Positions 6,590 to 55,163 of a stretch of DNA of 64,000 bases are shown here, piece after piece. Within the stretch, counting starts at the first letter, position 1. Each line of letters starts with the position of its first letter. The DNA comes from Candidatus Staskawiczbacteria bacterium (GTDB taxonomy: Bacteria > Patescibacteriota > Minisyncoccia > Minisyncoccales > Staskawiczbacteraceae), in NCBI GenBank assembly GCA_023245155.1, contig JAHFKV010000001.1, forward strand, positions 395,034-459,033, given 5' to 3'. The position numbers and the translations under genes were made by a program. The notes under the pieces are model-generated. The model ran no database searches, was not told the DNA's origin, and saw nothing but the letters and a program-made list of their open reading frames with translations.

Positions 6590-6689
6590 GAATAAGGTGT
6601 CGCAATGAAAATCAGGTTCAGCAGTAACGGTAGATAGAAATTTCAACCTGATTTTCAAAGTGAATTTCTCACTTCGTTCAAAATTCATG
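6590..6689 (+). promoter_or_regulatory. conserved two-hairpin 5' leader, copy 1 of 5 (upstream of rplK)
   Basis: GAATAAGGTGTCGCAA box. Hairpin 1 is TGAAAATCAGGTT (6606-6618) / AACCTGATTTTCA (6645-6657), followed by an AA spacer. Hairpin 2 is GTGAATTT (6660-6667) / AAATTCAT (6681-6688). The element ends at ATG 6687-6689. Confidence 0.8.
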
Positions 6690-7112
6690 GCAAAAGAAAT
6701 TAAGGTTATTGTGAAGGTGCAAATTTCAGCAGGAAAAGCCAATCCAGCGCCACCGATTGGTCCGGCTTTGGCTCCGCATGGATTAAATATTGCCGAGTTT
6801 TGCAAACAGTTTAACGATTTGACCAAGGATAAAATGGGAAACATTATTCCCGCCGAAGTTACCATTTACAAAGACCGAAGCTTTTCTATTAAGTTAAAAA
6901 CTCCTTTGGCAGCTGCACTTATTCGCAAGGCCGCCGGCGTAGAAAAGGGAAGCGGAGAACCGAATAAAAAGATTGTCGGGAAAATTACTAAAGCACAACT
7001 ACGCGAAATTGCAGAAATAAAAATGCCCGATTTAAACACGACCGATATTGACCAAGCGATGAAAATCATTGCTGGAACGGCCAAGAATAGTGGCATTGAG
7101 GTTAAAGGATAA
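6687..7112 (+). CDS. rplK: 50S ribosomal protein L11
   Basis: [32 protein letters not shown] is canonical L11. The 6660 GTG start in the ORF track lies inside the leader. Confidence 0.9.
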
Positions 7113-7121
7113 CGTTTTTCT

Positions 7122-7150
7122 AAAGGCGGCGCCCGTGGGCGCCGCCTTTT
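7122..7150. terminator. intrinsic terminator after rplK (A-run / T-run on both sides)
   Basis: GGCGGCGCC(C)/(G)GGCGCCGCC stem followed by TTTT. Confidence 0.75.
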
Positions 7151-7233
7151 AGTTGACTAACATATGTAAAAGTAATAGTCTGAATTTGGAATTACTAACA
7201 TCCAAAGTTCTTTTTCATGGAAAGAGGTGGAAA

Positions 7234-7886
7234 GTGGGAAGACCGCGACTTGCTATTTTCGCCTCTGGAACAGAAATAGAGGGTGGTTCTGGTGCTCGGG
7301 GCTTGGTGGTTGCCTCTCAAAAAGGCGTGCTTCTTGCTGACATTGCCGTGGTGGTTTCAAACCATGCCACTGGTGGGGTTTGCCAGATGGCGGATCAGTT
7401 GGGAGTTCCGTTTGTGCATTTTACCAAACCCCGGACCGCCGAAAGACACCAGGCGATTATTCGCCAGTATTCAGCTGATTTTGTCGCTCTTTCTGGATGT
7501 TTGTGGTTGGTTGAGGGATTGAATCCGCGACAACTTTCAACATTCATCCGGGTCCGTTACCGCGATTTGGTGGCAAAGGAATGCATGGTCGCCATGTTCA
7601 TGAGGCCGTACTTACCGCTTACAAGAGGGGCGAAATTACCAGTTCGGCGGTGACGATGCACTTTGTCACGCCACAGTACGATGAAGGCCCGGTTTTCTTT
7701 CATCTGCCTGTGCCAATCCTGCCAAGCGATACGGCTGAGACCTTGGGTAAGCGGGTGAATCAAGCGGAGCATCTGTTCCAACCACTCATTACTGACTGGG
7801 TAGTTCGAGGTATTATTTCGTGGGACGGAAAGAATAAAGATTCGCTTCGCGTTCCCGACAGGTACCGATGGCTTCCCAAGTCATAG
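7234..7886 (+). pseudogene. purN: PurN-like phosphoribosylglycinamide formyltransferase, frameshifted (GC-rich unit)
   Basis: The N-terminal half is in frame 1 (RLAIFASG...VVVSN...FVALSG). The C-terminal half is in frame 3 (NIHPGPLPRFGGKGMHGRHVHEAVL...). Twenty nt separate the last frame-1 homologous codon (7516-7518) from the N of NIHP (7539), implying a 1-nt loss or 2-nt gain in 7519-7538. The GTG at 7234 follows AGAGGTGG. Confidence 0.6.
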
Positions 7887-7895
7887 TAAAAAACA

Positions 7896-7929
7896 AGGTC
7901 CGATGGTGTTACTACCCTCGGATCTTTTA
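7896..7929 (+). terminator. intrinsic terminator after the purN-like unit
   Basis: AGGTCCGA/TCGGATCT stem (one G-U pair) with a T-run. Confidence 0.5.
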
Positions 7930-7998
7930 TTAATAATAGTTGTTGCATTTTAATGTTAGAATGAGTAGAATACAGGAACTAATTAATAATTGAAAACC

Positions 7999-8595
7999 AT
8001 GATTCTCTCCGATAAAGACATTAAAAAAGCGCTCAAGACTGGGAAAATTGGGGTGACGCCACTGTTTCCAAATTCTATTCAACCGGCGTCCATTGACGTG
8101 CACTTGGGCGCAGATTTTTTGGTATTTAAAAATACGGACAATGTTTGCATTGATCCCAAAGAGCCGATCGACGATATGATGGAAGCAACAACTATTAACG
8201 ATAAGCGCCAATTTATTTTGCATCCGGGTGAGTTTGCGCTGGGTATGACCTATGAAACGGTGGCCGTGCCGCATGACATGGTAGTGCAGTTAAATGGAAA
8301 GTCGTCATTGGGTAGGATTGGTTTGATTGTGCATGCAACGGCTGGTTACGTTGATCCAGGTAACACTCTGAAAATCACTTTGGAATTACATAATTTGGCG
8401 AATTTACCGATTAAACTATATTATAAAATGCCCATTGCCCAAGTGGTGTTTGTAAAGTTGACTGGTATGGTGGATGTGCCATACGGCAAAAAAAGCTTAA
8501 ATAGTAAATATTTTGGTAGTATGAAACCTATTGCCAGTCAGTATCACAAAAACTTCACCAAAAATAACGAATGGATTAAGTTTAAGAAAAAATAA
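7999..8595 (+). CDS. dcd: dCTP deaminase
   Basis: MILSDKDIKKALKTGKI...IQPASIDVHLG and GKSSLGRIGL motifs. The ATG at 7999 is preferred over the TTG at 7990. Confidence 0.85.
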   Translation: MILSDKDIKKALKTGKIGVTPLFPNSIQPASIDVHLGADFLVFKNTDNVCIDPKEPIDDMMEATTINDKRQFILHPGEFALGMTYETVAVPHDMVVQLNGKSSLGRIGLIVHATAGYVDPGNTLKITLELHNLANLPIKLYYKMPIAQVVFVKLTGMVDVPYGKKSLNSKYFGSMKPIASQYHKNFTKNNEWIKFKKK

Positions 8596-8596
8596 T

Positions 8597-8953
8597 ATGC
8601 CAGAAGAATTTTTAAAAAAGTACCAAGAAAACTGCACTAAAACCGCACAGTTTTTTGAAAACAAAAAACAAGAAATTTTGTCGTTAGGATTGGGCATTGC
8701 CGGGGAAGCCGGAGATGTGGCTAGTTGTATTAAAAAAACGTTTATCCACGACAATGACCAGACAACCGGTATTAAAGAAAATGTGGGAGATACGATGTGG
8801 TATATGGCAATGATTTGTAATTATTTTGGGTGGTCACTGGAAGATGTATTAAATGAGAATATAGAAAAGTTAAAGAAACGATACCCTGGCGGATTCACTA
8901 AGAAAGATGCGGGTAGAAATAATACTAAAATTGATTGGAATGAAAAAAGGTAA
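8597..8953 (+). CDS. MazG-like nucleoside triphosphate pyrophosphohydrolase
   Basis: GLGIAGEAGDVA...GDTMWY...KLKKRY is the pattern of small all-alpha MazG NTP-PPases. The ATG at 8597 comes right after the dcd stop. Confidence 0.65.
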   Translation: MPEEFLKKYQENCTKTAQFFENKKQEILSLGLGIAGEAGDVASCIKKTFIHDNDQTTGIKENVGDTMWYMAMICNYFGWSLEDVLNENIEKLKKRYPGGFTKKDAGRNNTKIDWNEKR

Positions 8954-9647
8954 ATTTTTTGTGCTAGAGGGCGTTGATGGATCGGGCAAGGCCACACAAA
9001 CTAAATTGTTGGTGGAGGCTTTGAAAAATAAAGGATTTTTGGTGGAGAAGGTTGATTTTCCGCAGTATACCAAGGCTTCTGCCGGAATGATTGAGAATTA
9101 CTTGAAAGGCATGTATGGCAGCTCGAAGGATGTGGGGCCGTATAAGGCATCTATCTTCTATGCATGCGATCGCTATGATATGAGTTTTAAAATTAGACAG
9201 TGGCTTGGTGAGGGAAGGATGGTGATTGCCGATAGATACATTGCTTCTAATATTGGACACCAGGGCGGAAAATTAATACGAAATAAAAAAGCGTGGGACA
9301 AATATATCGATTGGTTACATCATCTAGAATTTAGTATCTTTCAGATTCCAAAACCCGATTACACGCTAATTTTAAAAATTCCTCCAGAATTATCAATGAA
9401 ATCATCCAATAAAATTGTCGATAAAGATAAAGCTAAAAAACGTGCATCATATCTGGGAGATTCAAAAAAACAAGATATTCATGAGGCCGACAGATTACAT
9501 TTAGTAAATTCTTTAAAATCTTACATAGCTATTTCAAAAAAGTATCCCACAGACTATAGAATAATTGAATGCGAAGAAAAAGGGAAATTTTTGCCGCTTG
9601 AAGTCATCCATAAAAAAGTATTAACATTGGTTGAAGGAAAAATATAA
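8940..9647 (+). CDS. tmk: thymidylate kinase
   Basis: KGKFFVLEGVDGSGKATQ P-loop and a DRY motif. The start at 8940 overlaps the mazG-like end. Confidence 0.85.
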   Translation: MKKGKFFVLEGVDGSGKATQTKLLVEALKNKGFLVEKVDFPQYTKASAGMIENYLKGMYGSSKDVGPYKASIFYACDRYDMSFKIRQWLGEGRMVIADRYIASNIGHQGGKLIRNKKAWDKYIDWLHHLEFSIFQIPKPDYTLILKIPPELSMKSSNKIVDKDKAKKRASYLGDSKKQDIHEADRLHLVNSLKSYIAISKKYPTDYRIIECEEKGKFLPLEVIHKKVLTLVEGKI

Positions 9648-11311
9648 TGGAAACTGAAAAATTTGCGCCAAATGTTGAGCAATTGAATTTTACGGATGAA
9701 GAAAAGCACTTGGTGGCTCCTTTTTTTACCAACTTAAATGGGGGAGTGTTTGGCATTACCTTTTTGCCGCCGGAAGTAATTGGAGCGCTTTGTTCAAGAA
9801 CCAGCCGGGCTAAAGATGACTTACGAGCCGTTTTTTTGAAAGAATTTATGAAGCCGTTTTTGGAAGGGGACAGCACCTATTCAGAGTCTTTAAAAGCCTT
9901 AGTTGAATTTTTGCACAAGTACCCCGTAGAAGTTATTTTTTCTAACCCAAAAGCTCGGGATTTTTACATTACTTGGCTGGCCCAATTTGGCGATGATTCT
10001 ATTGCCCAGATGGCCGGAGCGCATTTGGTATTTTCTGGCATTTCCCAAATTGCTATTAAGCATATGGAAGACATGCGGGTGGGACTGGCGCCCATTGAAA
10101 AATCAACCAGGTATGTAGATTACTCAACAAAAGTAAATGGCAGCTACAGATACTACACTGATCCGACATTGGAAGGGATGGGGCTCAAAGAAGAATACGT
10201 AAAAGCCATGGATGGACTGTTTGAAACGTATACGGAATTAATGGGCCAATACATGGAATTTTTGAAAGTGAAATTCCCGGGCGAAGAAGAGCGAGTCCTC
10301 AAAACCAAAGCCTTTGATACATTGCGCGGATTATTACCAATGGCAACCTTAAGCCAAGTGGCATTTTTTGGTAATGGGCAGGCGTTTGAGTATATGATAA
10401 ATAGAAGCTTGGATCACAAATTGGGGGAAATTCGTTGGAGCGCTCAAAAATCTTTTGAAGAATTAAGCAAATTTATTCCCGCGTTTTTGCGGCGCGTCGA
10501 AACCGAGCCGGCCAAAGTGTATCGGAATTATTTGTCGGGCAAATCAGAAAGGGTGAGAGAGGCGATTACAAAATCCGGCTACCAAGCTCATATTCCCACC
10601 GCCAAAGAGCCGAATGTGAAGCTGCTTGAATTTGATGCTGATGGAGAGAATAAAATTATCGCCAGTCTCATTTTTAAAGAAACACATGAGCCGTTTGAAT
10701 TGGTACTGGGCAAGGTGCGAGACATGTCAGAAAGTCAAAAAGAAGACATTTTAAAAGCAGCCATTAAAGACAGAACCGTAAAGTATTTTAAAACTCCGCG
10801 AGCGTTTGAAAATAGTTTTTTACGTTTTGAAATTGTCATGAACATCGGTAGTTGGCGAGATTTACACCGGCACCGGATGCACACGCAAGAAAAACAGCTA
10901 TTTACTATTTACAATGGTTTTGATGTGCCAGAATCTTTGCGCGAGGCCGGGCTAGGTGGAAAATTTATTGCGGCTATTCAAAAAACTGAAGAGGTGTTTA
11001 AAAAAATTGAGGCCAAGGATAAAGATTTAGCGCAATATGCTACGTGTATGGCACATCGGGTGCGATTTATGCAATACCAAAATATGCGTGCTTTCTTTTG
11101 GGAAGCGGAATTGCGCACCATTGCCCAAGGACATCCGGATTATCGGGATATTGAGAAAGAAAAAGTGAAACTGGTCCAGAAAATTTACCCGTTGCTTTCA
11201 AAGTATTTATTGGCAGATATGGGGAATTATGATTTTGCCCGTAGGGGAGATACCGGTGCCATTCAAAGAAAAGAAGAAGAGTTGAAAAAATATTTTAGTG
11301 GGGGGAAATAG
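9647..11311 (+). CDS. thyX: FAD-dependent thymidylate synthase ThyX, long form
   Basis: WRDLHRHRMHTQ resembles the ThyX RHRxxS signature. At 554 aa it resembles the long ThyX forms. Context is dcd-mazG-tmk. Confidence 0.6.
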   Translation: METEKFAPNVEQLNFTDEEKHLVAPFFTNLNGGVFGITFLPPEVIGALCSRTSRAKDDLRAVFLKEFMKPFLEGDSTYSESLKALVEFLHKYPVEVIFSNPKARDFYITWLAQFGDDSIAQMAGAHLVFSGISQIAIKHMEDMRVGLAPIEKSTRYVDYSTKVNGSYRYYTDPTLEGMGLKEEYVKAMDGLFETYTELMGQYMEFLKVKFPGEEERVLKTKAFDTLRGLLPMATLSQVAFFGNGQAFEYMINRSLDHKLGEIRWSAQKSFEELSKFIPAFLRRVETEPAKVYRNYLSGKSERVREAITKSGYQAHIPTAKEPNVKLLEFDADGENKIIASLIFKETHEPFELVLGKVRDMSESQKEDILKAAIKDRTVKYFKTPRAFENSFLRFEIVMNIGSWRDLHRHRMHTQEKQLFTIYNGFDVPESLREAGLGGKFIAAIQKTEEVFKKIEAKDKDLAQYATCMAHRVRFMQYQNMRAFFWEAELRTIAQGHPDYRDIEKEKVKLVQKIYPLLSKYLLADMGNYDFARRGDTGAIQRKEEELKKYFSGGK

Positions 11312-11411
11312 AGAGTTTTGCAAAAAAAAGCCGCGCTCCTGATGGGGAGAGCGGCTTGTTGGTGTTAGAAATCTGGTAAAATCTTATCATTCAAAAAAGT
11401 GTCTGTCAATG

Positions 11412-11449
11412 TTTACGATATCGTTAAGCAGTGATAAAATTGAAACATG
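11412..11449 (+). promoter_or_regulatory. promoter TTTACG-17-TAAAAT with the gatB ATG 6 nt downstream (leaderless candidate)
   Basis: TTTACG 11412-11417, TAAAAT 11435-11440, tgaaac, ATG at 11447. Confidence 0.4.
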
Positions 11450-12862
11450 TATAAACCCACCATTGGTTTAGAAATTCATGCGGAGTTGAAGACCAACTCT
11501 AAGATGTTCTGCAGTTGTAAGAATGACCCGAATGAGCGGCGCCCAAATGTAAACATCTGCGAAGTGTGTACTGCCCAGCCAGGAACCTTGCCTGTTGCCA
11601 ACGAAGAGGCCGTTAAAAAGGTAATTAAGACGGGCATGGCTTTGGATTGCAAGATTGCCACGGAATCAAAATTTGACCGCAAAAATTATTTTTATCCAGA
11701 TATTCCTAAAGGCTATCAAATTTCCCAATATGATCAGCCAATGTGTGGCAAAGGTTATTTAAAAATTGGAAATAAAAAAATTGGCATTACGCGCATTCAT
11801 TTAGAGGAAGACACGGGAAGTTCACTGCATCCAGAAGGTACTGACTATTCATTGGTGAACTTTAACCGGGCAGGCGTACCGTTGATGGAATTGGTAACTG
11901 AGCCTGATATTACCAGTGGTAAAGAAGCCAGTGACTTCGCCAAAGAATTGCAGTTGATTTTCAGGTACTTGGGAGTTTCTGATGCTGATATGGAAAAGGG
12001 GTTGATGCGCGTGGAAGTGAACATTTCGGTGAGCAAAACGAAAACATTTGGCACCAAAGTGGAAATTAAAAATTTAAATAGTTTCAAGGTGGTGGAAAAA
12101 GCCATTGATTTTGAAATCACCCGGCAAACAGAATTATTGGAAAGCGGGGGAGTGGTGTTGCAGGAAACCCGCGGCTGGAATGATAAAAAAGAAATTACCT
12201 TCAGCCAGCGGGAAAAAGAAAGCGCCCATGATTACCGTTATTTCCCAGAACCGGATTTGCCGCCTTTGCATTTTGAAAAAGAGTATTTGCAGGTCATTCA
12301 GGCTGAAATTCCGGAGTTACCCGCAAAGAAGCGGGCTAGATTTAAGAGGGAGTATGACTTAGAGGAAGCACAAATAGAAATGTTTGTGGCGCAGAAAGAT
12401 TTAAGTGAATATTTTGAAAAAACGGCTTCAGAAGCCGGAAATGAAAAAGTGTATGGCTTGATTGCTAACTATCTTATTACGGATGTGAAGGGGCTTTTGG
12501 GAAATACGGAATTTGTGGAAGAGAAGTTTAAAATCACTCCGGAAAACTTTGCTGAGTTTATTGCCATGATTTATCAGAGCGAAATTAACAGCAAAACCGC
12601 AAAAATGCTGCTACTGGAAATGTTTAACACGGGCGGGGATCCTTCTCAAATTGTTGAGGCAAACAATTGGGGACAAATGAAGGATGATGGCGCTTTGGAA
12701 AAGGTGATTGCCGAAGTAATTGCCAAAAATCCAAAACCGGTGGCGGATTATAAGGCAGGTAATAAAAACTCGTTACAATTTTTGGCGGGGCAGGTGATGA
12801 AGGAAACTCGTGGTACTGCTAACCCCACTACGGTACAGGAAATTTTAAAGAAGTTGTTGTAA
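11447..12862 (+). CDS. gatB: Asp/Glu-tRNA amidotransferase subunit B
   Basis: MYKPTIGLEIHAELKTNSKMFCSC is a canonical GatB N-terminus, with a C-terminal YqeY-like tail. Confidence 0.9.
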   Translation: MYKPTIGLEIHAELKTNSKMFCSCKNDPNERRPNVNICEVCTAQPGTLPVANEEAVKKVIKTGMALDCKIATESKFDRKNYFYPDIPKGYQISQYDQPMCGKGYLKIGNKKIGITRIHLEEDTGSSLHPEGTDYSLVNFNRAGVPLMELVTEPDITSGKEASDFAKELQLIFRYLGVSDADMEKGLMRVEVNISVSKTKTFGTKVEIKNLNSFKVVEKAIDFEITRQTELLESGGVVLQETRGWNDKKEITFSQREKESAHDYRYFPEPDLPPLHFEKEYLQVIQAEIPELPAKKRARFKREYDLEEAQIEMFVAQKDLSEYFEKTASEAGNEKVYGLIANYLITDVKGLLGNTEFVEEKFKITPENFAEFIAMIYQSEINSKTAKMLLLEMFNTGGDPSQIVEANNWGQMKDDGALEKVIAEVIAKNPKPVADYKAGNKNSLQFLAGQVMKETRGTANPTTVQEILKKLL

Positions 12863-12867
12863 TTTTA

Positions 12868-12903
12868 ACCAAAAAACGCCCCGTACGGGGCGTTTTTTGG
12901 TTG
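12868..12903. terminator. bidirectional intrinsic terminator between gatB and the convergent regulator gene
   Basis: AACCAAAAAACGCCCC gtac GGGGCGTTTTTTGGTT. Confidence 0.8.
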
Positions 12904-13629: not shown

Positions 13630-13757
13630 GTGAAGGATTTGTTGAATTATGATTGATAATATGTAGTCTTTCATCACATTATATGTGAAACATTTGCCAT
13701 TGTCAAGGATTTCACTATACTGCACATAATTCTATAAAAAGTATTAAACATAAAAAA

Positions 13758-14765
13758 ATGAGTAAGACAACAAAAATTATAACTAGTGCAATGGTGATTT
13801 TGTTAATTGTGGTTGGATTTTGGTATGCTATTTTTCATTATCAAAACCTGGCACCGACGGAAACAATGAAAGTGAGAATTGCCAGTTTACCAAATGCCCA
13901 GGGATTACCGATTTATTTAGCCTTAGAAAAGGATTACTTTAAAGATGCTGGCTTAGATGTGGCATTGCTAAAGTTTGAAGCGCCCAATCAAATTATTGAT
14001 GCTCTGTTGCAGGGCCAGGTTGATTTGACTCATCCTGGGGGAGCAACAGGAATTGCCGGTATTGCTGATTTCAAAAATCCAGGAAAACTGAAAATCTATG
14101 CGCTCTCTGGCGGAGATATGACAGTTCAGAACGATGCTATTTTAGTGAAAAATAACAGTTCCATCACCTCAATCCAAGACCTGAAAGGCAAGAAGCTTGG
14201 CATTATGGCGGGTACGATTCAGTGGCAAACAATCGCTCGTGAAATCCTTGCTCAAAATAACTTAGAGTATGACAAAGACGTAAAAATTGTTGAAATAGCC
14301 CTGGGTTTGCAAGCCCAGGCGCTTGCTTCGGGGGATGTGGATGCCGTGCTTTGTATTGAACCGGTTCCTACGATAGTAAAGGCTAAGGGTATTGGCAAGG
14401 AATTAGTTCCATTTGCCGCTGCAAAATATATTTCCAACCCCTTTTATGGTGGCGCAGGAATCATTCGTGTAGATTTTGCCAAAAAAAATCCCAACACCAC
14501 GAAAAAAGTCTTGGATGTTATTGCCAAAGCTACTGATGAAATTAATCAAAATCCTGACGCCGCAAGACAATACTTGAAAGGGTACACCCAGCTTGACGAT
14601 ACTACAATTTCAAGGGTGCCGATTTTACACTTCAAAATGTATAGTAACTTTACTCAAGATGATATTAATGCGGTACAAAAGTTCTATGATATTTTTACGA
14701 AATACAACGTTGTTAATGGGCAAATGGATTTTAAACATCTTTTATATTCACCATTGGTAAACTAA
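13758..14765 (+). CDS. ABC transporter substrate-binding protein (NMT1/SsuA/TauA-like)
   Basis: N-terminal anchor and a periplasmic-binding fold pattern, followed by ATPase and permease genes. Confidence 0.65.
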   Translation: MSKTTKIITSAMVILLIVVGFWYAIFHYQNLAPTETMKVRIASLPNAQGLPIYLALEKDYFKDAGLDVALLKFEAPNQIIDALLQGQVDLTHPGGATGIAGIADFKNPGKLKIYALSGGDMTVQNDAILVKNNSSITSIQDLKGKKLGIMAGTIQWQTIAREILAQNNLEYDKDVKIVEIALGLQAQALASGDVDAVLCIEPVPTIVKAKGIGKELVPFAAAKYISNPFYGGAGIIRVDFAKKNPNTTKKVLDVIAKATDEINQNPDAARQYLKGYTQLDDTTISRVPILHFKMYSNFTQDDINAVQKFYDIFTKYNVVNGQMDFKHLLYSPLVN

Positions 14766-15515
14766 ATGGGTACTGCAATATCAGTTCACGGTTTAAAAAA
14801 GTCTTTTAACAACACTGAAGTCTTTACGGACTTCAGTGTTGTTATTGAACAAAATAAAATAACAGCTATTTTTGGGCCAAATGGTTCCGGTAAATCAACT
14901 CTTCTTAATATTCTTTCGGGAGTCACTTTAAAAGATGATGGAGAATATCATATTAAGGATTATAGCAAATTTCAATTTAGTTATATTTTCCAAAATTATC
15001 GCGAATCACTATTGCCTTGGAGAACAAATTTTGAAAATGTAGCACTGCCACTTCAAATACAAAAGAAAGGCAAAGAAGAGATAAAACAAAGGGTTGAAGA
15101 ATTACAAAAAATCTTTGAGTTTAAATTTGACTGGAATAAATATCCCTACGAATTAAGCGGGGGACAACAGCAAATCTTGGCTTTTATGCGCGCTCTTGTC
15201 ACCAATCCAAAGGTGCTCTTTATCGATGAGCCATTTTCTGCTTTAGATTATGAAAATAACTTACTCTTGCGAGAGCATCTGCAAAGGTATTATTTGGCTT
15301 TTAAACCTACTATTTTACTAATTACTCACAATATTGAAGAAGCAGTTCATCTCGCAGAAAAAATTGTAATTTTTTCTAAAAAACCGACTAAAGTTATCGA
15401 AACCATTGATAATCCTTTACCATATCCAAGAACAGTACAATCACTAAAAGATGAAAGTTTTCATAAGGTTAAAGATGAAGTGCTTTCGGTTTTCCAAAAA
15501 GCCGCAAATGTATGA
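14766..15515 (+). CDS. ABC transporter ATP-binding protein (nitrate/sulfonate/taurine type)
   Basis: Walker A GPNGSGKST, signature LSGGQQQ, Walker B LFIDEP. Confidence 0.85.
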   Translation: MGTAISVHGLKKSFNNTEVFTDFSVVIEQNKITAIFGPNGSGKSTLLNILSGVTLKDDGEYHIKDYSKFQFSYIFQNYRESLLPWRTNFENVALPLQIQKKGKEEIKQRVEELQKIFEFKFDWNKYPYELSGGQQQILAFMRALVTNPKVLFIDEPFSALDYENNLLLREHLQRYYLAFKPTILLITHNIEEAVHLAEKIVIFSKKPTKVIETIDNPLPYPRTVQSLKDESFHKVKDEVLSVFQKAANV

Positions 15516-16255
15516 AAAGGTATACTTTTATTGGGACAGTAATTTTAATCCTAATTTGGGTTGTTGTTTCTAAACTTGGGCTTATTGATACATTCTTTTT
15601 GCCAGATCCATTCACCGTCATCAAAAAACTCATTGAACTTCTAACCAGTGGCATTATTATTGGAGATATTCTGTCGACTCTTATTAGAGTGCTATTAGCT
15701 TTTGTTATCGCATTAGTAATTGGTTTGCCAATTGGTTTATTATTAGGAAGCAAGGAAAAGCTATATAAAAGTTTTGAATTTGTCATTGATTTTTTCCGTT
15801 CAACTCCTGCCACGGCTCTTTTTCCTCTTTTTCTTCTGGTTTTCGGCATTACAGATACATCGAAAATTGCTATTGCCGCTTTCGCATCAGCCCTCATCAT
15901 TATTTTTAATACCGCCCATGGTGTGATACACTCAAAAAAATCTCGGGTATTAGCAGCTCAAATAATGGGGGCAACAAAAACACAAGTTTTCCGATGGATA
16001 TTATTTTGGGAAAGCTTGCCGCAAACTTTTATAGGATTGCGAAGCGCAGTCAGCTTGTCTTTAGTGGTTATTGTAGTAACAGAAATGTTTATTGGCACTC
16101 CCTCTGGGCTTGGCCGAAAAATTATTGACGCCCAGATAACCTACGAAATACCAACCATGTATGCAGTTATTATTTTAACCGGTATCATTGGCTACCTGCT
16201 TAATTTATTTTTTATTCTTATTGAGAAAAGATTCCTGCATTGGAGCGGTAAGTAG
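15512..16255 (+). CDS. ABC transporter permease (BPD_transp_1 type)
   Basis: 6 TM helices. Its start overlaps the ATPase stop. Confidence 0.75.
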   Translation: MKRYTFIGTVILILIWVVVSKLGLIDTFFLPDPFTVIKKLIELLTSGIIIGDILSTLIRVLLAFVIALVIGLPIGLLLGSKEKLYKSFEFVIDFFRSTPATALFPLFLLVFGITDTSKIAIAAFASALIIIFNTAHGVIHSKKSRVLAAQIMGATKTQVFRWILFWESLPQTFIGLRSAVSLSLVVIVVTEMFIGTPSGLGRKIIDAQITYEIPTMYAVIILTGIIGYLLNLFFILIEKRFLHWSGK

Positions 16256-20552: not shown

Positions 20553-20602
20553 TTTGGCTCAGGGCGGTAAACTATTGACAATTTCTTTATTTGTACAATA
20601 TG

Positions 20603-25688: not shown

Positions 25689-26377
25689 AAGAATTCGGAC
25701 TATTTGAAAAGAAATTAGGCTTGTCATTTAAAAATAAAGACCTGTTGCTGCAAGCGTTTGTCCACCGGTCATATTTAAATGAGAATCCTGATTTCAGACT
25801 TGAACAAAACGAACGGCTGGAATTTTTGGGAGACGCGGTGTTGGAACTGGTTATCACTGAACATTTATACAAAGAATATCCGAAAGAAGATGAGGGGCAG
25901 CTAACGAATTGGAGAGCAGCATTAGTTAATTCTAAAATGCTTACCCAGGTGGCTGAAGAATTGGGCTTTAATGACTTCTTACTGTTAAGCCGGGGGGAAA
26001 CCAAAGAATTAGGAAAAGCGCGCCAGTACATTTTAGCCAACACGTTTGAAGCATTGATTGGCGCGACGTACTTGGATGCGGGATACGAGCCTTGCGACCG
26101 ATTTATTAAAAAGCACTTACTGGCCAGGCTGCCCGAAATTATTGCAAGCAAGTCATATAAGGATGCTAAATCTCATTTTCAGGAAGAAGCTCAGGAAAAA
26201 GCCGGTGTCACTCCCATGTATAAGGTAGTGAAAGAATGGGGGCCCGATCATAAAAAGAAGTTCACCGTGACAGTTTCTTTAAGAGAAGAACAAGTGGCTG
26301 AAGGTGAAGGGTATTCAAAGCAAGAAGCAGAGGAGGAAGCGGCCAAAAGCGCATTACTAGTAAAAAAGTGGAATTAA
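25685..26377 (+). CDS. rnc: ribonuclease III
   Basis: [21 protein letters not shown] signature and a C-terminal dsRBD. Confidence 0.9.
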
Positions 26378-26379: not shown

Positions 26380-26480
26380 GAAATAAGGTGTCGCAATGAG
26401 AATCGGGCTGCAAGGTATCGTTAGATAATTTTCAGCCCGATTCTCAAAGTGAATTCATTCGTTTTACTCATAAATTCATG
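26380..26480 (+). promoter_or_regulatory. conserved two-hairpin 5' leader, copy 2 of 5 (upstream of rpsP)
   Basis: GAAATAAGGTGTCGCAA box. Hairpin 1 is TGAGAATCGGGCTG (26397-26410) / CAGCCCGATTCTCA (26433-26446), followed by AA. Then GTGAATT...AATTCAT. The element ends at ATG 26478. Confidence 0.8.
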
Positions 26481-27498: not shown

Positions 27499-27828
27499 AT
27501 GGCACAAGAAATGGATCAAGAGTTTTTGGAATATCTTGTTAAGGCATTGGTTGACAACCCAAAAGACGTCAAAGTTACTCGTAAAGTTGACGAAATGGGC
27601 GTATTGCTTTCATTGACGGTGAACCCAGCTGATATGGGCCAGATCATTGGAAGAGAAGGTTCAACCGCCAAAGCTATTCGGAACTTGGTAAGAATTGTAG
27701 GTTTGAAAAATCACGCCCGGGTAAATCTCAAGATTGAGGAACCAGAGGGTGGAAGAGGTCCAAACCCAAGGCCAGCCGCCGATAAACCGGCTGCCGCGCT
27801 AGACGAAATTGAGAATATCTCTTTGTAA
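27499..27828 (+). CDS. KH-domain RNA-binding protein (YlqC/UPF0109 family)
   Basis: LEYLVKALVDNP...GQIIGREGSTAKAIRNLV has a GxxG KH motif. Usually a neighbour of rpsP. Confidence 0.8.
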   Translation: MAQEMDQEFLEYLVKALVDNPKDVKVTRKVDEMGVLLSLTVNPADMGQIIGREGSTAKAIRNLVRIVGLKNHARVNLKIEEPEGGRGPNPRPAADKPAAALDEIENISL

Positions 27829-38457: not shown

Positions 38458-38598
38458 TTGACAGTGAGTTAAATATAGATTAATATAACAGTGTATAGAA
38501 ATAAGCCGCAGACTACAGGTAGCCAAGGCGTAAATCCTGTAAGAGGCAAGCAATTTTTGTTTGTTTGAGTCTGCCCGGTCGGGCATTTTTATTTAACA
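38458..38598 (+). promoter_or_regulatory. promoter plus structured RNA plus short terminator: candidate L10(L12)-responsive attenuator upstream of rplJ
   Basis: TTGACA (38458-38463)-17-TAATAT (38481-38486), then about 70 nt containing ACAGG...CCTGT, then GCCC ggtc GGGC ATTTTTATTT (38573-38595). Confidence 0.35.
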
Positions 38599-38600
38599 AC

Positions 38601-38695
38601 GAAGTAATGTGTCGCAACAGAAATAAGGCCTCAAAGTAACGGTATAGTTTAGCCTTATTTCTGAAGTGAATTTCTCGCTTCGCTCCAAATTCATG
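38601..38695 (+). promoter_or_regulatory. conserved two-hairpin 5' leader, copy 3 of 5 (upstream of rplJ)
   Basis: GAAGTAATGTGTCGCAA box. Hairpin 1 is CAGAAATAAGGC (38618-38629) / GCCTTATTTCTG (38652-38663), followed by AA. Then GTGAATTT...AAATTCAT. The element ends at ATG 38693. Confidence 0.8.
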
Positions 38696-43425: not shown

Positions 43426-43455
43426 TTGACCCGAGTGCTTGAAATGGGCTATAAA
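43426..43455 (+). promoter_or_regulatory. mraZ operon promoter TTGACC-18-TATAAA
   Basis: Hexamers at 43426-43431 and 43450-43455. Confidence 0.5.
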
Positions 43456-43464
43456 TACTGTGTA

Positions 43465-43494
43465 GTGGATAAATGTGGATAAATGTGGGAAAAG
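43465..43494 (+). promoter_or_regulatory. three direct 10-bp repeats GTGGATAAAT / GTGGATAAAT / GTGGGAAAAG (candidate MraZ operator; also DnaA-box-like)
   Basis: Repeats start at 43465, 43475 and 43485, just downstream of the -10. A fourth GTGGATAAAT lies at 43376-43385. Confidence 0.55.
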
Positions 43495-43520
43495 TCATTA
43501 AATAAGGGGATAACTAATGC

Positions 43521-43623
43521 GAATAATGTGTCGCAATGAAAATCAGGTCTCAAAGAATATCTTTGATAAAAATTAAACCTGATTTTCAAAGTGAATTTAT
43601 TCGCTTCGCTCCATAAATTCATG
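43521..43623 (+). promoter_or_regulatory. conserved two-hairpin 5' leader, copy 4 of 5 (upstream of mraZ)
   Basis: GAATAATGTGTCGCAA box. Hairpin 1 is TGAAAATCAGGT (43537-43548) / ACCTGATTTTCA (43577-43588), followed by AA. Then GTGAATTT...AAATTCAT. The element ends at ATG 43621. Confidence 0.8.
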
Positions 43624-44052: not shown

Positions 44053-44053
44053 T

Positions 44054-45303: not shown

Positions 45304-45310
45304 GTGCTTC

Positions 45311-47005: not shown

Positions 47006-47108
47006 AATGCGTATCTTTACGACGAAGTTAGAAAATTTTTTGTATAAAAGATGCTTAATGTAAACTTTTTTGTGTTTTTAAGCTAATTTTGGTATTGTTA
47101 AATAAAAT

Positions 47109-47984: not shown

Positions 47985-48002
47985 AAAATGTAAAACTCGA
48001 TT

Positions 48003-48473: not shown

Positions 48474-48477
48474 AATT

Positions 48478-48906: not shown

Positions 48907-48962
48907 ACCCCGGTTACCAGAATGAGAATCTGGTGTCCTAGGCCGGGCTAGACGATAGGGTC
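48888..48962 (-). tRNA. tRNA-Glu (CTC)
   Basis: The reverse complement gives acceptor GACCCTA/TGGGGTC (one G-U pair), D-arm GTCTAGCCCGGCCTAGGAC, anticodon stem CCAGA/TCTGG, loop TTCTCAT, and T-arm CGGGG/CCCCG. Confidence 0.85.
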
Positions 48963-49033
48963 ATGGATTTTCTATATCACAAAAGTCGGGTTTTATCCAC
49001 ATGTTTGACATATTTATTTGGCATTAAAAAGGG

Positions 49034-49048
49034 TAAAATGTAGTAATG
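49034..49048 (+). promoter_or_regulatory. -10 box TAAAAT placed 6 nt before the ATG (leaderless candidate)
   Basis: TAAAAT 49034-49039, gtagta, ATG at 49046. Confidence 0.35.
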
Positions 49049-50167: not shown

Positions 50168-50168
50168 C

Positions 50169-51131: not shown

Positions 51132-53561
51132 ATGAATTCTCAAGCTTCGGGTCTTTCAGAGCAAGAGGTCCAAGAGGGGCTCAAAAAATATGGTTTCAAT
51201 GAGGTGGCTGTCCACGAGCATCGGGCACTGGATATTTTTTTACGCCAAATAAAGTCACCTTTTGCTTATTTGCTCTTTACCGCGGGAATTCTTTCCCTCT
51301 TCATCGGCGAAAAAATTGATAGCGCAGTGATTATAGCCTTTGTGACGGTAAACATTATTATTGGGTTTTTCCAAGAATACCGCGCGGAAAAAACAGTTTC
51401 CTTGTTGGCCAAGTTAGTCCCCCAAAATGTAAAGGTAGTTCGTGATGGAAAACAGCAAACTATTGAAAAAAAATTCCTGGTGCCCGGAGACATCGTTTTG
51501 CTGGCGCCGGGAGATATTCTGCCAGCCGAATTAAGAGTTCTTGAATGCCAGAATTTTTTGGTTGACGAATCGGCCATGACGGGTGAATCATTTCCCGTTG
51601 CCAGGGCTGCAGATGATGCATTGTTTGCCGCAACCACGGTGGTTTCTGGAAAAGCTACCACGCGGGTAACTGCCACCGGGAAAAACACTAAGCTTGGGGG
51701 TATTGTGGTTTCAGTGGCTGGACACCGCCACGGAGGGGTTTATGAAAAAAATCTGCTCTATTTTTGCCGGCTGATTTTAAAAATCGTGGTGGCAACCATC
51801 GTAATCATTTTCATCGCCAATTTCATTATCAAAGGTGGCGAACACGCGTTTGAATTTTCCTTTTTTTGCATTGCTTTGATTGTCAGCATTTTACCGGAAG
51901 CCTTGCCGGCCATTGTGGTATTTGCCCTAAGTCGCGGCAGTTTGAAAATGGCAGAAGATAACGTGGTGGTTAAGCGTTTGGAAGCCATTGAAGATTTGGG
52001 CAATATTGAAATATTGTGTACCGATAAAACCGGAACTCTCACCCAAAACAAGCTTGTATTGGAAAAAATCGCCACTTCTGACAAAGACAAAGCTTTGCTT
52101 TATGCATTATTGGGGTCTGACAAGGAAAGTATAGATCCCTTTGACTTGGCATTTGTTTCGCGTGCCAGTTACGGGATTTTAGAACAGGTGAAAAAATATA
52201 AAAAAATATCCCAGTTACCGTTTGATTCTTTCAGAATGCGCTCAAGCGCGTTATTGGAAAACCAAAAGGCCGAAAGATGGCTAATAGTAAAGGGGGCGCC
52301 AGAAGTAGTGGTAAAATTATGCACTAATTTCGGGCGCGCTTTTGACAAAAAAGAAGTACTTGAAGATTGCAAGCGTGAAGGGCAAAATGGCAAGCGTTCG
52401 CTGGCCATTGCCTATAAAAAGTTTGAAGGAGAAAACATTGCCGCCAAAGATGAGAAAGGGCTGATGTTTCTAGGATATTTTGTGTTTGAAGATCCTCTGA
52501 AAAGCACGGCTGAAGAATCCATCCGCCTTTCAAAAAAACTGGGTTTGCAGATAAAAATCATCACGGGCGATTCAAAAGAGGTTGCCGGGTACGTGGCTAA
52601 AAAAGTGGGGCTGATTACCACCTCTGAAAACGTTATGTTGGCTGAACAGTTAGAACGTATGGCGCCAGATGATTTTGATGAAGCATGCCAAGAAAACGTG
52701 GTGTTTGCCCGCATTTCCCCCGATGTTAAACACAAGATTATAACTTCACTCCAGAAAAAGTTTGAAGTGGGTTTTTTGGGTGAGGGGATTAATGATGCTC
52801 CCGCCCTAAAAACGGCCGATGTGGGCATCGCTGTGGCTGAAGCTTCCGATATTGCCCGTGAATCAGCTGATATTGTGCTGCTCAAAAAAGATTTACGGGT
52901 GATTGTCAATGGTATTAAAACCGGGCGTAACATTTTTGCTAACATTAATAAATACATCAAGTGCGCGCTGGCTAGTAACTTTGGAAATTTTTATTCTATT
53001 GCGGTCATTTCGCTCTTTGTGCCATTTTTGCCCATGTTACCGGTGCAAATTTTGCTGGGAAATTTACTGTCTGATTTTCCCTTAATTTCTATTGTGTCTG
53101 ATTCAGTTGACGTGGAAGAATTACGAAAACCCAAGGCATATCAATTGCACAATGTCCTGCCTTTAATTATTGCCTTGGCGCTAGTGAGCACCGTTTTCGA
53201 CTTTATTTTTTTCACTATTTTTTACCATCAACCGGCCGGTAATATCCAGACACTGTGGTTTATTGAAAGCATTTTAACTGAAATTGTCTTGATCTTTATT
53301 ATTCGTACGCGTAAGCAATTTTGGAAAGCCAAGCGCCCGAATTTCTGGTTGTTTTTCTTTACCATCATTGACGGCGCGGTGATTCTTGCCTTGCCATTTT
53401 TCAAATTCGGCCAGGATTTTTTCCACTTTGTAACGCCGCCGGTTTTACCTTTACTGGTTGTATTTTTCCTAGTTGGTTTGTATTTTATGGCCAGCGAAAT
53501 GGTAAAGCTAGTATATTTTCACTACTTTAAAATTCCAAAGACTTCAATTGACTCGCGTTAG
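51132..53561 (+). CDS. cation-transporting P-type ATPase (type II/III, Ca2+/Mg2+-like)
   Basis: N-terminal GLSEQEVQEGLKKYGFNEV, TGES, CTDKTGTLTQN, TGDS, GEGINDAPALKTADVGIAV. Confidence 0.85.
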   Translation: MNSQASGLSEQEVQEGLKKYGFNEVAVHEHRALDIFLRQIKSPFAYLLFTAGILSLFIGEKIDSAVIIAFVTVNIIIGFFQEYRAEKTVSLLAKLVPQNVKVVRDGKQQTIEKKFLVPGDIVLLAPGDILPAELRVLECQNFLVDESAMTGESFPVARAADDALFAATTVVSGKATTRVTATGKNTKLGGIVVSVAGHRHGGVYEKNLLYFCRLILKIVVATIVIIFIANFIIKGGEHAFEFSFFCIALIVSILPEALPAIVVFALSRGSLKMAEDNVVVKRLEAIEDLGNIEILCTDKTGTLTQNKLVLEKIATSDKDKALLYALLGSDKESIDPFDLAFVSRASYGILEQVKKYKKISQLPFDSFRMRSSALLENQKAERWLIVKGAPEVVVKLCTNFGRAFDKKEVLEDCKREGQNGKRSLAIAYKKFEGENIAAKDEKGLMFLGYFVFEDPLKSTAEESIRLSKKLGLQIKIITGDSKEVAGYVAKKVGLITTSENVMLAEQLERMAPDDFDEACQENVVFARISPDVKHKIITSLQKKFEVGFLGEGINDAPALKTADVGIAVAEASDIARESADIVLLKKDLRVIVNGIKTGRNIFANINKYIKCALASNFGNFYSIAVISLFVPFLPMLPVQILLGNLLSDFPLISIVSDSVDVEELRKPKAYQLHNVLPLIIALALVSTVFDFIFFTIFYHQPAGNIQTLWFIESILTEIVLIFIIRTRKQFWKAKRPNFWLFFFTIIDGAVILALPFFKFGQDFFHFVTPPVLPLLVVFFLVGLYFMASEMVKLVYFHYFKIPKTSIDSR

Positions 53562-53616
53562 TTGATATGGTACAAATAATCGCAGCAACAATCACACACT
53601 CAAAAGAGAGGTCGTT

Positions 53617-53931
53617 ATGGCTTGCAGAACATCCAAAATCCTTGACGGGCCTTCTCCAGAGGAATTACTTACGGCGCTGAATTCTTCCTTGCCGGTGCAA
53701 TTCATGTGGTTTGGCTGGGATATGAAAAACTCGGAAAGTGTGCTGATGTCAATGGATATTTACCTCCTTAAGGTCGTGTTGGGGTTTTCCTTTGAGGGCG
53801 ACACAGCCATTCAGGGGTATACTACAGCCGTTAATTCTTCGTCTGGAAGACGGCCATGCTGGCTGATATTTAACCCGGCGCCCCGCGACAGCATCCTTGG
53901 GAAGGGTATCATTTTCTGGCTGGACGATTGA
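53617..53931 (+). CDS. hypothetical protein (GC-rich unit)
   Basis: AGAGAGG SD 5 nt before the ATG and a terminator at 53952-53979. No family recognised. Confidence 0.4.
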   Translation: MACRTSKILDGPSPEELLTALNSSLPVQFMWFGWDMKNSESVLMSMDIYLLKVVLGFSFEGDTAIQGYTTAVNSSSGRRPCWLIFNPAPRDSILGKGIIFWLDD

Positions 53932-53951
53932 GTCAGCCCCAAGAATCAACA

Positions 53952-53979
53952 AAGTGTTGGTCGTTCCAACACTTTTTTC
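53952..53979 (+). terminator. intrinsic terminator
   Basis: AAGTGTTGG/CCAACACTT stem with a T-run. Confidence 0.7.
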
Positions 53980-53993
53980 TTTCCTAAAAAGTG

Positions 53994-54012
53994 TGTTAGA
54001 ATAATGGCAATG
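53994..54012 (+). promoter_or_regulatory. extended -10 TGtTAGAAT placed 7 nt before the second ATG of rmuC (leaderless candidate)
   Basis: TG 53994-53995, TAGAAT 53997-54002, aatggca, ATG at 54010. Confidence 0.4.
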
Positions 54013-55044
54013 GATATTTCAATTTTATTTTACATTTTCATCATTGCTGGCATTGGGGCCGTGATTTTTTTACAGACAAGAAGAAAAGAAGAGCCCAAAA
54101 AAGACGATGGGCAATTATTGATGTTGCAACAGCAGTTAAATCATGTGTCGCAGGTACTAGACCAAAAACTGGCCGAACAAAATAAAAATTCGCAGTTCCA
54201 GTTTGCCGAGTCTTCAAAAATAATTGGTGATGTGCGCGAAAGGCTGGCCAAATTAGATGAAACCAACAAGCAGGTGGTAAATTTTGCCGGGCAACTGCAA
54301 AATCTGCAAGACATTTTAAAAAATCCAAAACAGCGGGGGATTTTGGGCGAATATTATTTGGAAACGGTTTTAAAAAATGTCCTGCCACCGGGGAGTTATC
54401 AAATGCAGTATGGGTTTGCCGATGGCGTGATTGTGGATGCCGCTGTTTTTGTGGACAAATTAATTATTCCGATTGACTCAAAGTTCAGCCTGGAAAATTA
54501 TAATAGAATGGTTGAGGCCACTGACCCGCAAGAAAAAAAGCGGCTGGAAATGGCATTTATTTCTGATTTAAAACTGCGCATTGATGAAACGGCCAAATAT
54601 GTAAAACCGGAAGAAAAAACTACCGATTTTGCTTTTATGTTTATTCCATCCGAAGCAGTGTATTATGATTTGCTAATTAATAAAGTGGGCGTCATTGCCG
54701 ATGATAACCAAAATTTAGTGTATTATGCGGGCAAGAAAAAAGTGGTAGTAGTTTCGCCAACTTCTTTTTTAGCTTATTTGCAAACCGTTTTACAGGGCAT
54801 GAAAAATCAGAAAATTTCTGAGCAGGCGCAAATGATTATCAAAGAAGTGGAACGATTGGGTAAGCATATGTTTGCGTACAGCGAATACGTCAACCGGATG
54901 GGGGACAATCTGGATAAAACTGTCAGCAGTTATAACAAAGCCCGTGCCGAATTTTTGAAAGTGGACAAAGATGTGGTTAAAATTACGGATGGGGATAGCA
55001 AGGTAAAAATTGATGAAATCGCGCGGCCCAACATTGACGAATAG
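54004..55044 (+). CDS. rmuC: DNA recombination protein RmuC
   Basis: N-terminal TM helix, a coiled coil, then QRGILGEYYLETVL...IIPIDSKFSLENY. The start may be 54010. Confidence 0.8.
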   Translation: MAMDISILFYIFIIAGIGAVIFLQTRRKEEPKKDDGQLLMLQQQLNHVSQVLDQKLAEQNKNSQFQFAESSKIIGDVRERLAKLDETNKQVVNFAGQLQNLQDILKNPKQRGILGEYYLETVLKNVLPPGSYQMQYGFADGVIVDAAVFVDKLIIPIDSKFSLENYNRMVEATDPQEKKRLEMAFISDLKLRIDETAKYVKPEEKTTDFAFMFIPSEAVYYDLLINKVGVIADDNQNLVYYAGKKKVVVVSPTSFLAYLQTVLQGMKNQKISEQAQMIIKEVERLGKHMFAYSEYVNRMGDNLDKTVSSYNKARAEFLKVDKDVVKITDGDSKVKIDEIARPNIDE

Positions 55045-55069
55045 AGCTAATTTTGCTAGTATGATTAAT

Positions 55070-55163
55070 GAATAAGGTGTCGCAACAGAAATAAGGCCTC
55101 AAAGTAACGGTATAGTTTAGCCTTATTTCTGAAGTGAATTTCTCACTTCGTTCCAAATTCATG
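55070..55163 (+). promoter_or_regulatory. conserved two-hairpin 5' leader, copy 5 of 5 (upstream of rplU)
   Basis: GAATAAGGTGTCGCAA box. Hairpin 1 is CAGAAATAAGGC (55086-55097) / GCCTTATTTCTG (55120-55131), followed by AA. Then GTGAATTT...AAATTCAT. The element ends at ATG 55161. Confidence 0.8.

Follow-up and report, generated by a model that had tools for sequence, protein, structure and literature searches.

A repeated RNA cassette ends at the start codons of ribosomal protein and other genes in Candidatus Staskawiczbacteria

We analysed a 64,000 nucleotide stretch of the genome of a Candidatus Staskawiczbacteria bacterium (contig JAHFKV010000001.1, positions 395,034 to 459,033), referred to below as the window. 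The window encodes a structured RNA cassette of about 100 bases (95-105 nt) in five copies, all on the sense (+) strand, preceding rplK, rpsP, rplJ, mraZ and rplU. The products of these genes, L11, S16, L10, MraZ and L21 respectively, are confirmed by Pfam and have canonical N-termini. Every copy ends ...AAATTCATG, and its ATG is the true start codon of the downstream gene. Three features argue for selection on the RNA at the initiation site: it joins the AUG exactly, it is sense-oriented, and its 5' motif, both hairpin 2 arms and loop 2 are strongly conserved while hairpin 1 drifts. We tentatively suggest, with somewhat less than even confidence, that the cassette is a portable leader that acts in cis on the mRNA and drives or controls translation initiation independently of a Shine-Dalgarno (SD) sequence. 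The cassette, which is undescribed and unusual, belongs broadly with the cis-acting leader and repeat elements.

Cassette copies in the window

Copy 1 is located at 6588..6689, between the nusG stop codon (6581-6583) and the rplK ATG (6687-6689). Copy 2 (26380..26480) lies between the rnc stop codon (26375-26377) and the rpsP ATG (26478-26480), and copy 3 (38601..38695) is found directly 3' of an L10 leader and its terminator and ends with the rplJ ATG (38693-38695). Copy 4 (43519..43623) is located 3' of the mraZ promoter and MraZ boxes, with the mraZ ATG at 43621-43623, and copy 5 (55069..55163) ends with the rplU ATG at 55161-55163. The first-pass annotation of the window, made from the letters alone, had described five segments with one common layout, and both alignment and coordinates confirm this on the plus strand. 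It had placed the 5' boundary slightly too far downstream; the conserved 5' block begins 1-2 nt earlier, with (A)CGAAUAAGG. When the five copies are aligned from (A)CGAAUAAGG to the ATG the mean column identity is 77%, and the similarity ends at both borders. The strings GTGTCGCAA and AAGTGAATT occur five times each in the window, only in cassette copies and only on the plus strand.

A covariance model was built from 11 distinct copies from the window and its relatives. As the earlier annotation had proposed, searching with such a model recovered the five window copies at 95-105 bits (95.9, 104.8, 95.4, 105.1 and 94.9 bits for copies 1 to 5, respectively). A sixth copy was sought in the window and none was found; the next match scored 18 bits, and the remaining model matches above 18 bits are reverse-strand echoes of the palindromic hairpin 1.

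Structure of the cassette

The cassette starts with a conserved single-stranded 5' motif, (A)CGAAUAAGGUGUCGCAA, followed by hairpin 1 (12-14 bp), an AA linker and an AU-rich inverted repeat, hairpin 2. The arms of hairpin 2 are GUGAAUUU/AAAUUCAU, with the A and U of the AUG closing the 3' arm, and loop 2 holds a conserved pyrimidine motif, UCGCUUCGCU, 7-10 nt 5' of the AUG. In copy 1, the 5' motif GAATAAGGTGTCGCAA is located at 6590-6605, the hairpin 1 arms at 6606-6618 and 6645-6657, the AA at 6658-6659 and the hairpin 2 arms at 6660-6667 and 6681-6688, with CUCACUUCGUUC as loop-2 motif. The hairpin 1 arms of copy 2 (26397-26410 and 26433-26446) form 14 bp, and its hairpin 2 arms are at 26449-26455 and 26473-26479. 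The corresponding arms are at 38618-38629 / 38652-38663 (hairpin 1) and 38666-38673 / 38687-38694 (hairpin 2) in copy 3, and at 55086-55097 / 55120-55131 and 55134-55141 / 55155-55162 in copy 5. Copy 4 has its hairpin 1 arms at 43537-43548 / 43577-43588 and a longer hairpin 2 of 10 bp (43591-43600 / 43613-43622). Copies 3 and 5 have identical hairpin 1 and loop sequences, copies 1 and 4 have their stem in common, and the window copies combine their 5' and loop-2 variants in different ways.

Hairpin 1 is a real helix kept by compensatory changes. Its pairing is retained in 98.5% of the cells in the alignment of the 11 distinct copies, compared to 25-48% when the partner columns are slid. Nine of the 12 pairs have two-sided changes, and the observed covariation score was reached by none of 500 shuffles, so that the earlier claim of a hairpin conserved as structure is well founded. 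The loop of hairpin 1 varies between copies in sequence as well as length (20-29 nt).

Hairpin 2 (GUGAAUU/AAUUCAU) is invariant across the 11 copies, and covariation therefore neither supports nor contradicts it. Its complementarity is retained in 14 of 14 copies, with no double substitutions. The changes seen when three diverged copies are added are G.U to A-U in two copies and, in the copy of locus L066, the loss of one base from each arm together, giving AUGAUUUAU/AUAAAUCAU (subfamily B). A minimal copy in locus L037 has the same type of hairpin 2 arms as L066.

Single-sequence nearest-neighbour folding, energy evaluation and RNAalifold all preferred a competing fold over hairpin 2. In brief, hairpin 2 gives up its first four bases, GUGA, to pairing with the UCGC of the 5' motif, and AGGUG pairs with the loop-2 CRCYU. 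This extends hairpin 1 into one long irregular hairpin, and AAAUUCAUG is predicted to be single-stranded and the AUG free. The competing fold is 2.3-6 kcal/mol more stable than the best fold with hairpin 2, for which an equilibrium probability of no more than 0.03 is predicted. Pairing in the competing helix is retained in 95% of cells (27-43% when slid), with one doubly changed pair, and its covariation score was reached in 30 of the 500 shuffles. The rigid two-hairpin architecture first described thus gives an incomplete account. A covarying pair had also been reported at the apex of hairpin 2. The A..U versus G..C change is present, but it is a single two-state change that the alternative fold explains about equally well; in three copies it is, in addition, a third-position change in the codons read from an in-frame GTG. 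The 3' half of the cassette, with two predicted competing partners for one strand, may have the anatomy of an on/off platform. Some complementarity between the 5' flank and loop 2 is found in every copy, in varying registers. The duplexes average -7.1 kcal/mol for cognate and -5.5 kcal/mol for non-cognate combinations, with shuffle p values from 0.008 to 0.29, which is suggestive only of a possible long-range pseudoknot.

The GTG in hairpin 2 could in principle be the real start codon, adding about nine residues to the protein, or a small upstream open reading frame (ORF) could be translated. GTG is in frame in copies 1, 3, 4 and 5, and copies 1, 3 and 5 encode the same peptide with their differences on third codon positions. 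The frames are inconsistent, however: in copy 2 and in four of the copies from relatives the GTG is out of frame, the copy in locus L054 has an in-frame stop, and the peptide of copy 4 is different. L10 homologues begin MALTKE and none has this extension, and the upstream ORFs differ in every copy. A coding role is contradicted by these frames, and we consider it scarcely tenable.

Copies in related genomes

Nine further complete copies were found in related Candidatus Staskawiczbacteria, eight of which end at ATG. They come from a pattern scan of one genome per species and from a metagenome scan, followed by covariance model and regular expression searches of the loci. The scan of the genome collection gave four real matches, all in metagenome-assembled genomes of Staskawiczbacteria (46 of the 50 matches were due to chance), and the metagenome scan gave five real loci (three of eight matches were due to chance). 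Phage contigs scanned for further copies gave one chance match only. The copies from these two scans precede rplJ, rpsH (in the spc operon), lysS, a gpm-like gene and a H+-pyrophosphatase gene, and each ends ...AAUUCAUG at the canonical N-terminus. Diverged copies were found by the covariance model before rplL in loci L046 and L063 and before rplJ in L066, and the regular expression search found the minimal copy, before rplO, in L037. Hairpin 2 of the L046 rplL copy ends immediately before the ATG, ...TTCATATG.

All 14 complete copies, at distinct loci in at least seven genomes, are on the sense strand of the downstream gene, and 13 of them end at the start codon. Overall, the downstream products are L11, S16, L10, L7/L12, L21, S8, MraZ, lysyl-tRNA synthetase, a Gpm-like protein and H+-pyrophosphatase (at least ten genes). 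We regard the cassette as lineage-specific to Candidatus Staskawiczbacteria, a lineage of Parcubacteria within the candidate phyla radiation (CPR). A large set of L10 sequences has 72-93% identity to that of the window, and several of those with a source name are labelled Staskawiczbacteria. Across genomes with L10 identities of only 72-85%, the 5' motif, both arms of hairpin 2 and loop 2 are near-invariant while hairpin 1 drifts. Loci L033, L037 and L046 have one other hairpin 1 type in common. The near-invariant sequences beside a drifting hairpin 1 argue for a sequence-specific partner.

The distribution is patchy. Locus L064, with an L10 90% identical to that of the window, has a clean empty site at rplJ and is without the cassette at mraZ. 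At rplJ it reads ...ttattacaac directly followed by ATGGCA, as compared to ...tatttaacaac, the 95-nt cassette and then ATGGCA in the window. We interpret the window rplJ cassette as a clean insertion exactly 5' of the ATG. Comparing the occupied and empty rplJ sites revealed no target-site duplication, and there are no terminal inverted repeats; the ends, CGAAUAAGG... and ...AAAUUC, do not form an inverted pair. The patchiness at orthologous sites points to a repeat in recent spread, as opposed to an old regulon, and we take the cassette to be a young repeat that is spreading or being homogenised by recombination.

The main rival explanation, serious if unlikely, is a selfish hairpin repeat, from one of many such families in the transcribed intergenic DNA of Staskawiczbacteria, resembling repetitive extragenic palindromes (REP) or miniature transposable elements with inverted repeats (MITE), with placement due to insertion preference and purifying selection and with an effect on mRNA stability at most. 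The patchiness among close relatives and the clean empty sites are as expected of such a repeat. So are the intra-genome copies being more alike than orthologous ones (copies 3 and 5, copies 1 and 4; L033, L037 and L046) and an assembly break inside the cassette, described below. Like the co-transcribed REP/BIME, ERIC/IRU, Neisseria Correia and pneumococcal BOX elements, the cassette is an approximately 100 nt, multi-copy and homogenised hairpin element of operons and 5' untranslated regions (UTRs), with patchy occurrence. As in REP- and MITE-like repeats, there are multiple copies (five in 64 kb) and presence/absence differences between close relatives (L064). Occurrence in either orientation and at variable distances from genes was not seen among the 14 complete copies. 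The cassette differs from the known repeats by its strict orientation, its exact abutment of the start codon and its conserved single strands, and by having neither terminal inverted repeats nor target duplication. ATG triplets are found everywhere, and neutral insertion would thus not give 14 of 14 sense-oriented copies abutting the start codon, 13 of them exactly at the ATG. The conservation of single-stranded motifs and loop 2 while hairpin 1 drifts points to selection beyond foldability, and no transposase, of RAYT, IS200/IS605 or other type, came up in the loci examined. A selfish repeat would account for the patchiness, and not for the exact placement or the conserved single strands.

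Translation in the host lineage

The genes in the window have A-rich upstream regions with almost no SD motifs, and several look leaderless. The first-pass reading of the window as coming from a SD-poor CPR organism was borne out by its assignment to Candidatus Staskawiczbacteria and by these upstream regions, and its statement that native genes lack SD holds for most genes in the window. At the gene starts 54004, 62820, 47109 and 34089, -10-like hexamers (TAGAAT, TATAAA, TAAAAT and TATCAT, respectively) are found a few nt before the ATG, which suggests that these genes have leaderless mRNAs.

We did not find rplA, encoding uL1, after rplK (window 7113-7998). A strong terminator is located at 7125-7150. 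This region, left uncalled by the gene caller, holds a formyltransferase-like gene split over frames, whose ORF at 7581-7886 corresponds to the C-terminal portion of Formyl_trans_N. Lacking rplA, the genome belongs to the uL1-lacking Parcubacteria. The anti-SD motif is missing in about half of the Parcubacteria, and its loss largely coincides with the uL1-lacking group (Tsurumaki et al., PMC9297842). In these lineages h26, the contact of the SD helix, stays conserved for unknown reasons (Tsurumaki et al., PMC9297842). This literature on uL1-lacking Parcubacteria suggests that the anti-SD has been lost in the clade studied here.

The 5' motif itself includes a SD-like AGGUG in nine of 14 copies, namely three of the five window copies and all six canonical copies in relatives. 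At this site the sequence is AAUGUG in copies 3 and 4 and either GCGGCA or AAUGUU in subfamily B. With both hairpins closed, the effective distance from AGGUG to the AUG would be 8 nt (UCGCAA + AA), giving a split SD as in phage T4 genes 38 and 25. The sequence and the spacing in these nine copies speak for this reading. We nevertheless consider it very improbable; AGGUG is replaced in copies 3 and 4 and in subfamily B, almost no other gene in the window has a SD, and AGGUG is predicted to be paired with loop 2. Moreover, this is a uL1-lacking Parcubacteria lineage, reported to be mostly without anti-SD (PMC9297842), and anti-SD pairing is thus probably absent from the clade, unlike in the T4 case. 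A SD-like role for loop 2 (UCGCUUCGCU at -7 to -20) was rejected, as the motif is not found before other genes in the window. Scanning the window and loci of relatives turned up no 16S rRNA gene.

Unrelated hairpins at equivalent sites in sister genomes

In several relatives we found unrelated hairpins 3-15 nt before the ATG of rplJ, rplL, mraZ, ftsL-like and penicillin-binding protein genes. Their stems are up to 30-50 bp long, built from short repeated units and often rich in G.U pairs, and would thus fold in the sense RNA only. They are located at L059:9909-9995, 10520-10580, 13700-13795, 15150-15220 and 15585-15655; L060:9915-9996 and 10510-10583; L061:18350-18441; L067:265-345; and at most S10-spc junctions of L073 from 2184 to 12821 (gaps over 40 nt). 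A hairpin abutting the start codon of abundant genes looks like a trait of the clade with several sequence families, of which we take the window cassette to be the one with conserved single-stranded motifs. Several unrelated hairpin families at the same spots in sister genomes, present at most S10-spc junctions of L073 and at none in L070, are also in line with selfish repeats. The same can be said of the RVT_1 reverse-transcriptase genes found near rplJ-rplL in two relatives (L059:1-587; L060-L062:12491-13498), for which no link to the spread of hairpins was shown.

It is conceivable that an mRNA helix at the start codon as such aids start-site selection on abundant mRNAs in Parcubacteria without anti-SD and uL1. 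The cassette would then be one form of such a helix and the hairpins of sister genomes others, docking at the platform/h26, which is the site of the normal SD:anti-SD duplex. We give this idea little weight; if true, a start-codon helix replacing the SD duplex and carried on mobile cassettes would be a categorically new initiation mode.

Another repeat family was observed in relatives at L046:2140-2201 and L073:12735-12805. It is a GC-rich hairpin, CAUUGCGAG...GUCGCUACGCU(C/U)CUCGCAAUG, and in L046 the AUG that closes it serves as start codon for the following gene. Like loop 2 of the cassette, this hairpin holds a UCGCUACGCU motif, which is also found in the large hairpin 1 loop of a truncated cassette copy, L058:1-122.

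A putative initiation or control leader

We suggest that the cassette was recently copied to the exact 5' side of the start codons of highly expressed genes. If ribosomes in this clade do not depend on SD:anti-SD pairing, a self-contained initiation region may be supplied by the cassette. With the 5' arm of hairpin 2 paired to its 3' arm, the start codon would be closed. With the same arm paired to the 5' motif, the start codon and the preceding A/U-rich stretch would be open, and this open form is the one predicted to be more stable. A trans-acting factor, a ribosomal component or an RNA-binding protein reading the UCGC-type motifs, could then shift the balance and set the output. The cassette probably lies within mRNAs, judging from its context: copy 5 is located at a predicted transcription start, copy 3 follows the L10 leader, and copies 1 and 2 fill intercistronic gaps. 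The retention of both pairings across the copies and the other hairpins that sister genomes carry before the same start codons also speak for the proposal.

Several points weigh against this proposal. Start sites without SD are normally unstructured, and a hairpin over the AUG of ribosomal protein genes is therefore counter-intuitive for an enhancer. The empty sites of L064 show that the cassette is dispensable. The window rplL, another abundant gene, is without a cassette, and the S10-spc operon of L070 is tightly packed with zero hairpins. The near-identity of copies within one genome is equally expected of a selfish repeat, and the available copies give no statistically supported covariation for either hairpin 2 or the competing helix. 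A short-read Logan contig (L074:10430-10467) ends inside the cassette after nusG. This contig holds an identical 786-aa protein, and is apparently from the same or a near-identical strain, but continues with the hairpin 1 loop of copy 4 and not that of copy 1; the contig end is either an assembly break at a repeat or a strain difference. It should also be noted that the functional steps, i.e. transcription within the mRNA, an effect on translation and the switch, are all inferred from sequence.

The conserved single strands could alternatively form the operator of one global RNA-binding regulator. A protein would read the UCGC/UCAC motifs, i.e. the 5' motif and the two loop-2 motifs, and lock hairpin 2 over the AUG, so that ribosome, division and core-metabolism genes are co-repressed. 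The conservation of single-stranded primary sequence against drifting stems fits this explanation, as do the growth-related targets, and the alternative pairing, if formed, would be a ready on/off platform. The proposed arrangement, in which the AUG is at the foot of a weak hairpin whose loop is conserved and an alternative fold could gate it, resembles the MS2 replicase operator and the Escherichia coli rpsO and thrS operators. The cassette differs from these by being multi-copy and portable, its AUG pairing is putative, and a binding protein is known only for those operators. Downstream of rpsP, at 27499-27828, the window encodes an RNA-binding protein of KhpA type with a KH domain, which could speculatively be the regulator. 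Its position is uninformative, as rpsP-khpA synteny is common in bacteria. The operators of an established regulon would be expected at orthologous genes, where the cassette is not conserved, and the hairpins of relatives at the same sites are unrelated and without these motifs. We consider a global regulator distinctly unlikely.

A processing or stability signal is quite improbable in our view. Here, RNase III or another endonuclease would cut the competing helix and hairpin 1 and thereby separate cistrons, leaving a stable 5' end near the AUG or, if the cut is at UUC/AUG, a leaderless mRNA. Copies 1 and 2, like copies found in relatives, lie between cistrons, rnc is present in the window, and leaderless starts are apparently used elsewhere in the genome. 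The preferred fold, a predicted irregular hairpin of about 24-25 bp with internal loops, resembles the intercistronic RNase III sites of phage T7 early mRNA (R1.1 and others), and the perfect 30-50 bp hairpins of relatives would be ideal RNase III substrates. The cassette helices are shorter than those of the T7 sites, however, and T7 sites need not end at an AUG. Neither stability nor processing requires the exact end at the ATG, and a cut inside a 7-8 bp AU-rich stem to give a leaderless mRNA fits no known nuclease rule. The cassette matches no known ribozyme family. For the earlier idea of cleavage to leaderless mRNA nothing was found in favour, and the position of rnc beside copy 2 is unremarkable.

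How CPR ribosomes find start codons is an open question, and a sharper one in lineages without anti-SD. The cassette offers a concrete handle on it, as a sequence-defined element of about 100 nt at the AUG of the most abundant mRNAs, in which one helix is proven and an on/off platform is plausible. Should the cassette drive or gate initiation, it would be a portable, SD-independent ribosome entry or control module of interest to translation research and synthetic biology. If it is selfish, the cassette and the sister hairpins would represent a new way for repeats to live in essential operons.

Comparison with known RNA families and elements

Scanning the window with Rfam 15 (4227 models) at gathering thresholds gave four tRNAs only, and E-value scans of copies 2, 3 and 4 gave only sub-threshold noise of miRNA and snoRNA hairpin type. 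This agrees with the first-pass annotation, in which the element was not recognised as any described RNA family. Self-cleaving ribozymes (hammerhead, twister, pistol, hatchet, HDV-like or similar) gave no match at E up to 10. Copy 3 is not an L10_leader, as the RF00557 match ends where the copy begins. Like the ribosomal protein leaders L10_leader (RF00557) and L21_leader (RF00559), the cassette is a structured 5' UTR element placed to affect initiation. These leaders are operon-specific and mimic the rRNA site of the protein, whereas the cassette precedes at least ten unrelated genes in several genomes and is missing from the rplJ and mraZ sites of several close relatives. The earlier view that it is not a protein-specific leader is thereby upheld.

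The two exclusive pairings, predicted to decide access to the start region, recall the sequestor/anti-sequestor platforms of riboswitches and RNA thermometers (fourU, ROSE). The cassette has no SD to sequester and no conserved ligand-binding core; the hairpin 1 loop is variable and conserved nucleotides are confined to the putative expression platform, and we rejected a riboswitch. A promoter within the cassette was also rejected. There are TATAAT-like words in hairpin 1 loops, but no usable -35 was seen by inspection, and a promoter scan at copy 5 gave promoters upstream only. Ends of IS200/IS605-type elements or MITEs do not fit either, as the two hairpins are mutually unrelated and there are no terminal repeats and no duplication.

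Genomic neighbourhood of the copies

The first-pass annotation had placed the cassette on the first genes of operons. This is wrong for several copies: copies 1 and 2 begin 7 and 3 nt, respectively, beyond the nusG and rnc stop codons, and relatives have copies before rpsH, within the spc operon, as well as in the gap from rplJ to rplL. It was right in that rplJ and mraZ keep upstream elements of their own. Upstream of rplJ, RF00557 matches at 38488..38600 (+; 30.6 bits, E 0.002, gathering threshold 44), and the terminator-like hairpin of this L10 leader is at 38573-38590 (+), immediately 5' of copy 3. L10_leader scores above the gathering threshold upstream of rplJ in L059, L063 and L068, and the classical L10/L12 autoregulatory leader therefore seems to be present in this CPR clade. 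In L059 and L063, another, unrelated hairpin is located between the L10 leader and the rplJ ATG.

Upstream of mraZ and 5' of copy 4, we read from the sequence a promoter-like TTGACC-17-TATAAA at 43426-43456 (+). It is followed at 43465-43489 (+) by three MraZ-box-like GTGG(A/G) repeats with 10-nt spacing, GTGGATAAATGTGGATAAATGTGGG, the expected MraZ operator. The MraZ boxes are conserved in L063, L064 and L066, without the cassette beside them. The rplU promoter at 55034..55062 (+) is of sigma-70 type (TTGACG-17-TAGTAT) with a TG extension. Its predicted transcription start, approximately 55069, is the 5' end of copy 5, which thus fills the entire rplU 5' UTR. Locus L063 has the same rplU promoter, but a plain 29-nt leader without the cassette.

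Consequences for gene annotation

Whether leader or selfish repeat, the cassette causes gene callers to mis-start genes within it. We saw this directly once, in L037:3658-4092 (minus strand), where the longest S8 ORF starts inside the cassette and thereby gains a spurious N-terminal extension, MLKLRSEFARLARKF-M.... Seven L10 homologues (P0023, P0055, P0074, P0078, P0080, P0084 and P0094) have N-terminal extensions before MALTKE. These were seen as protein sequences only, and presumably represent starts called in upstream leader hairpins.

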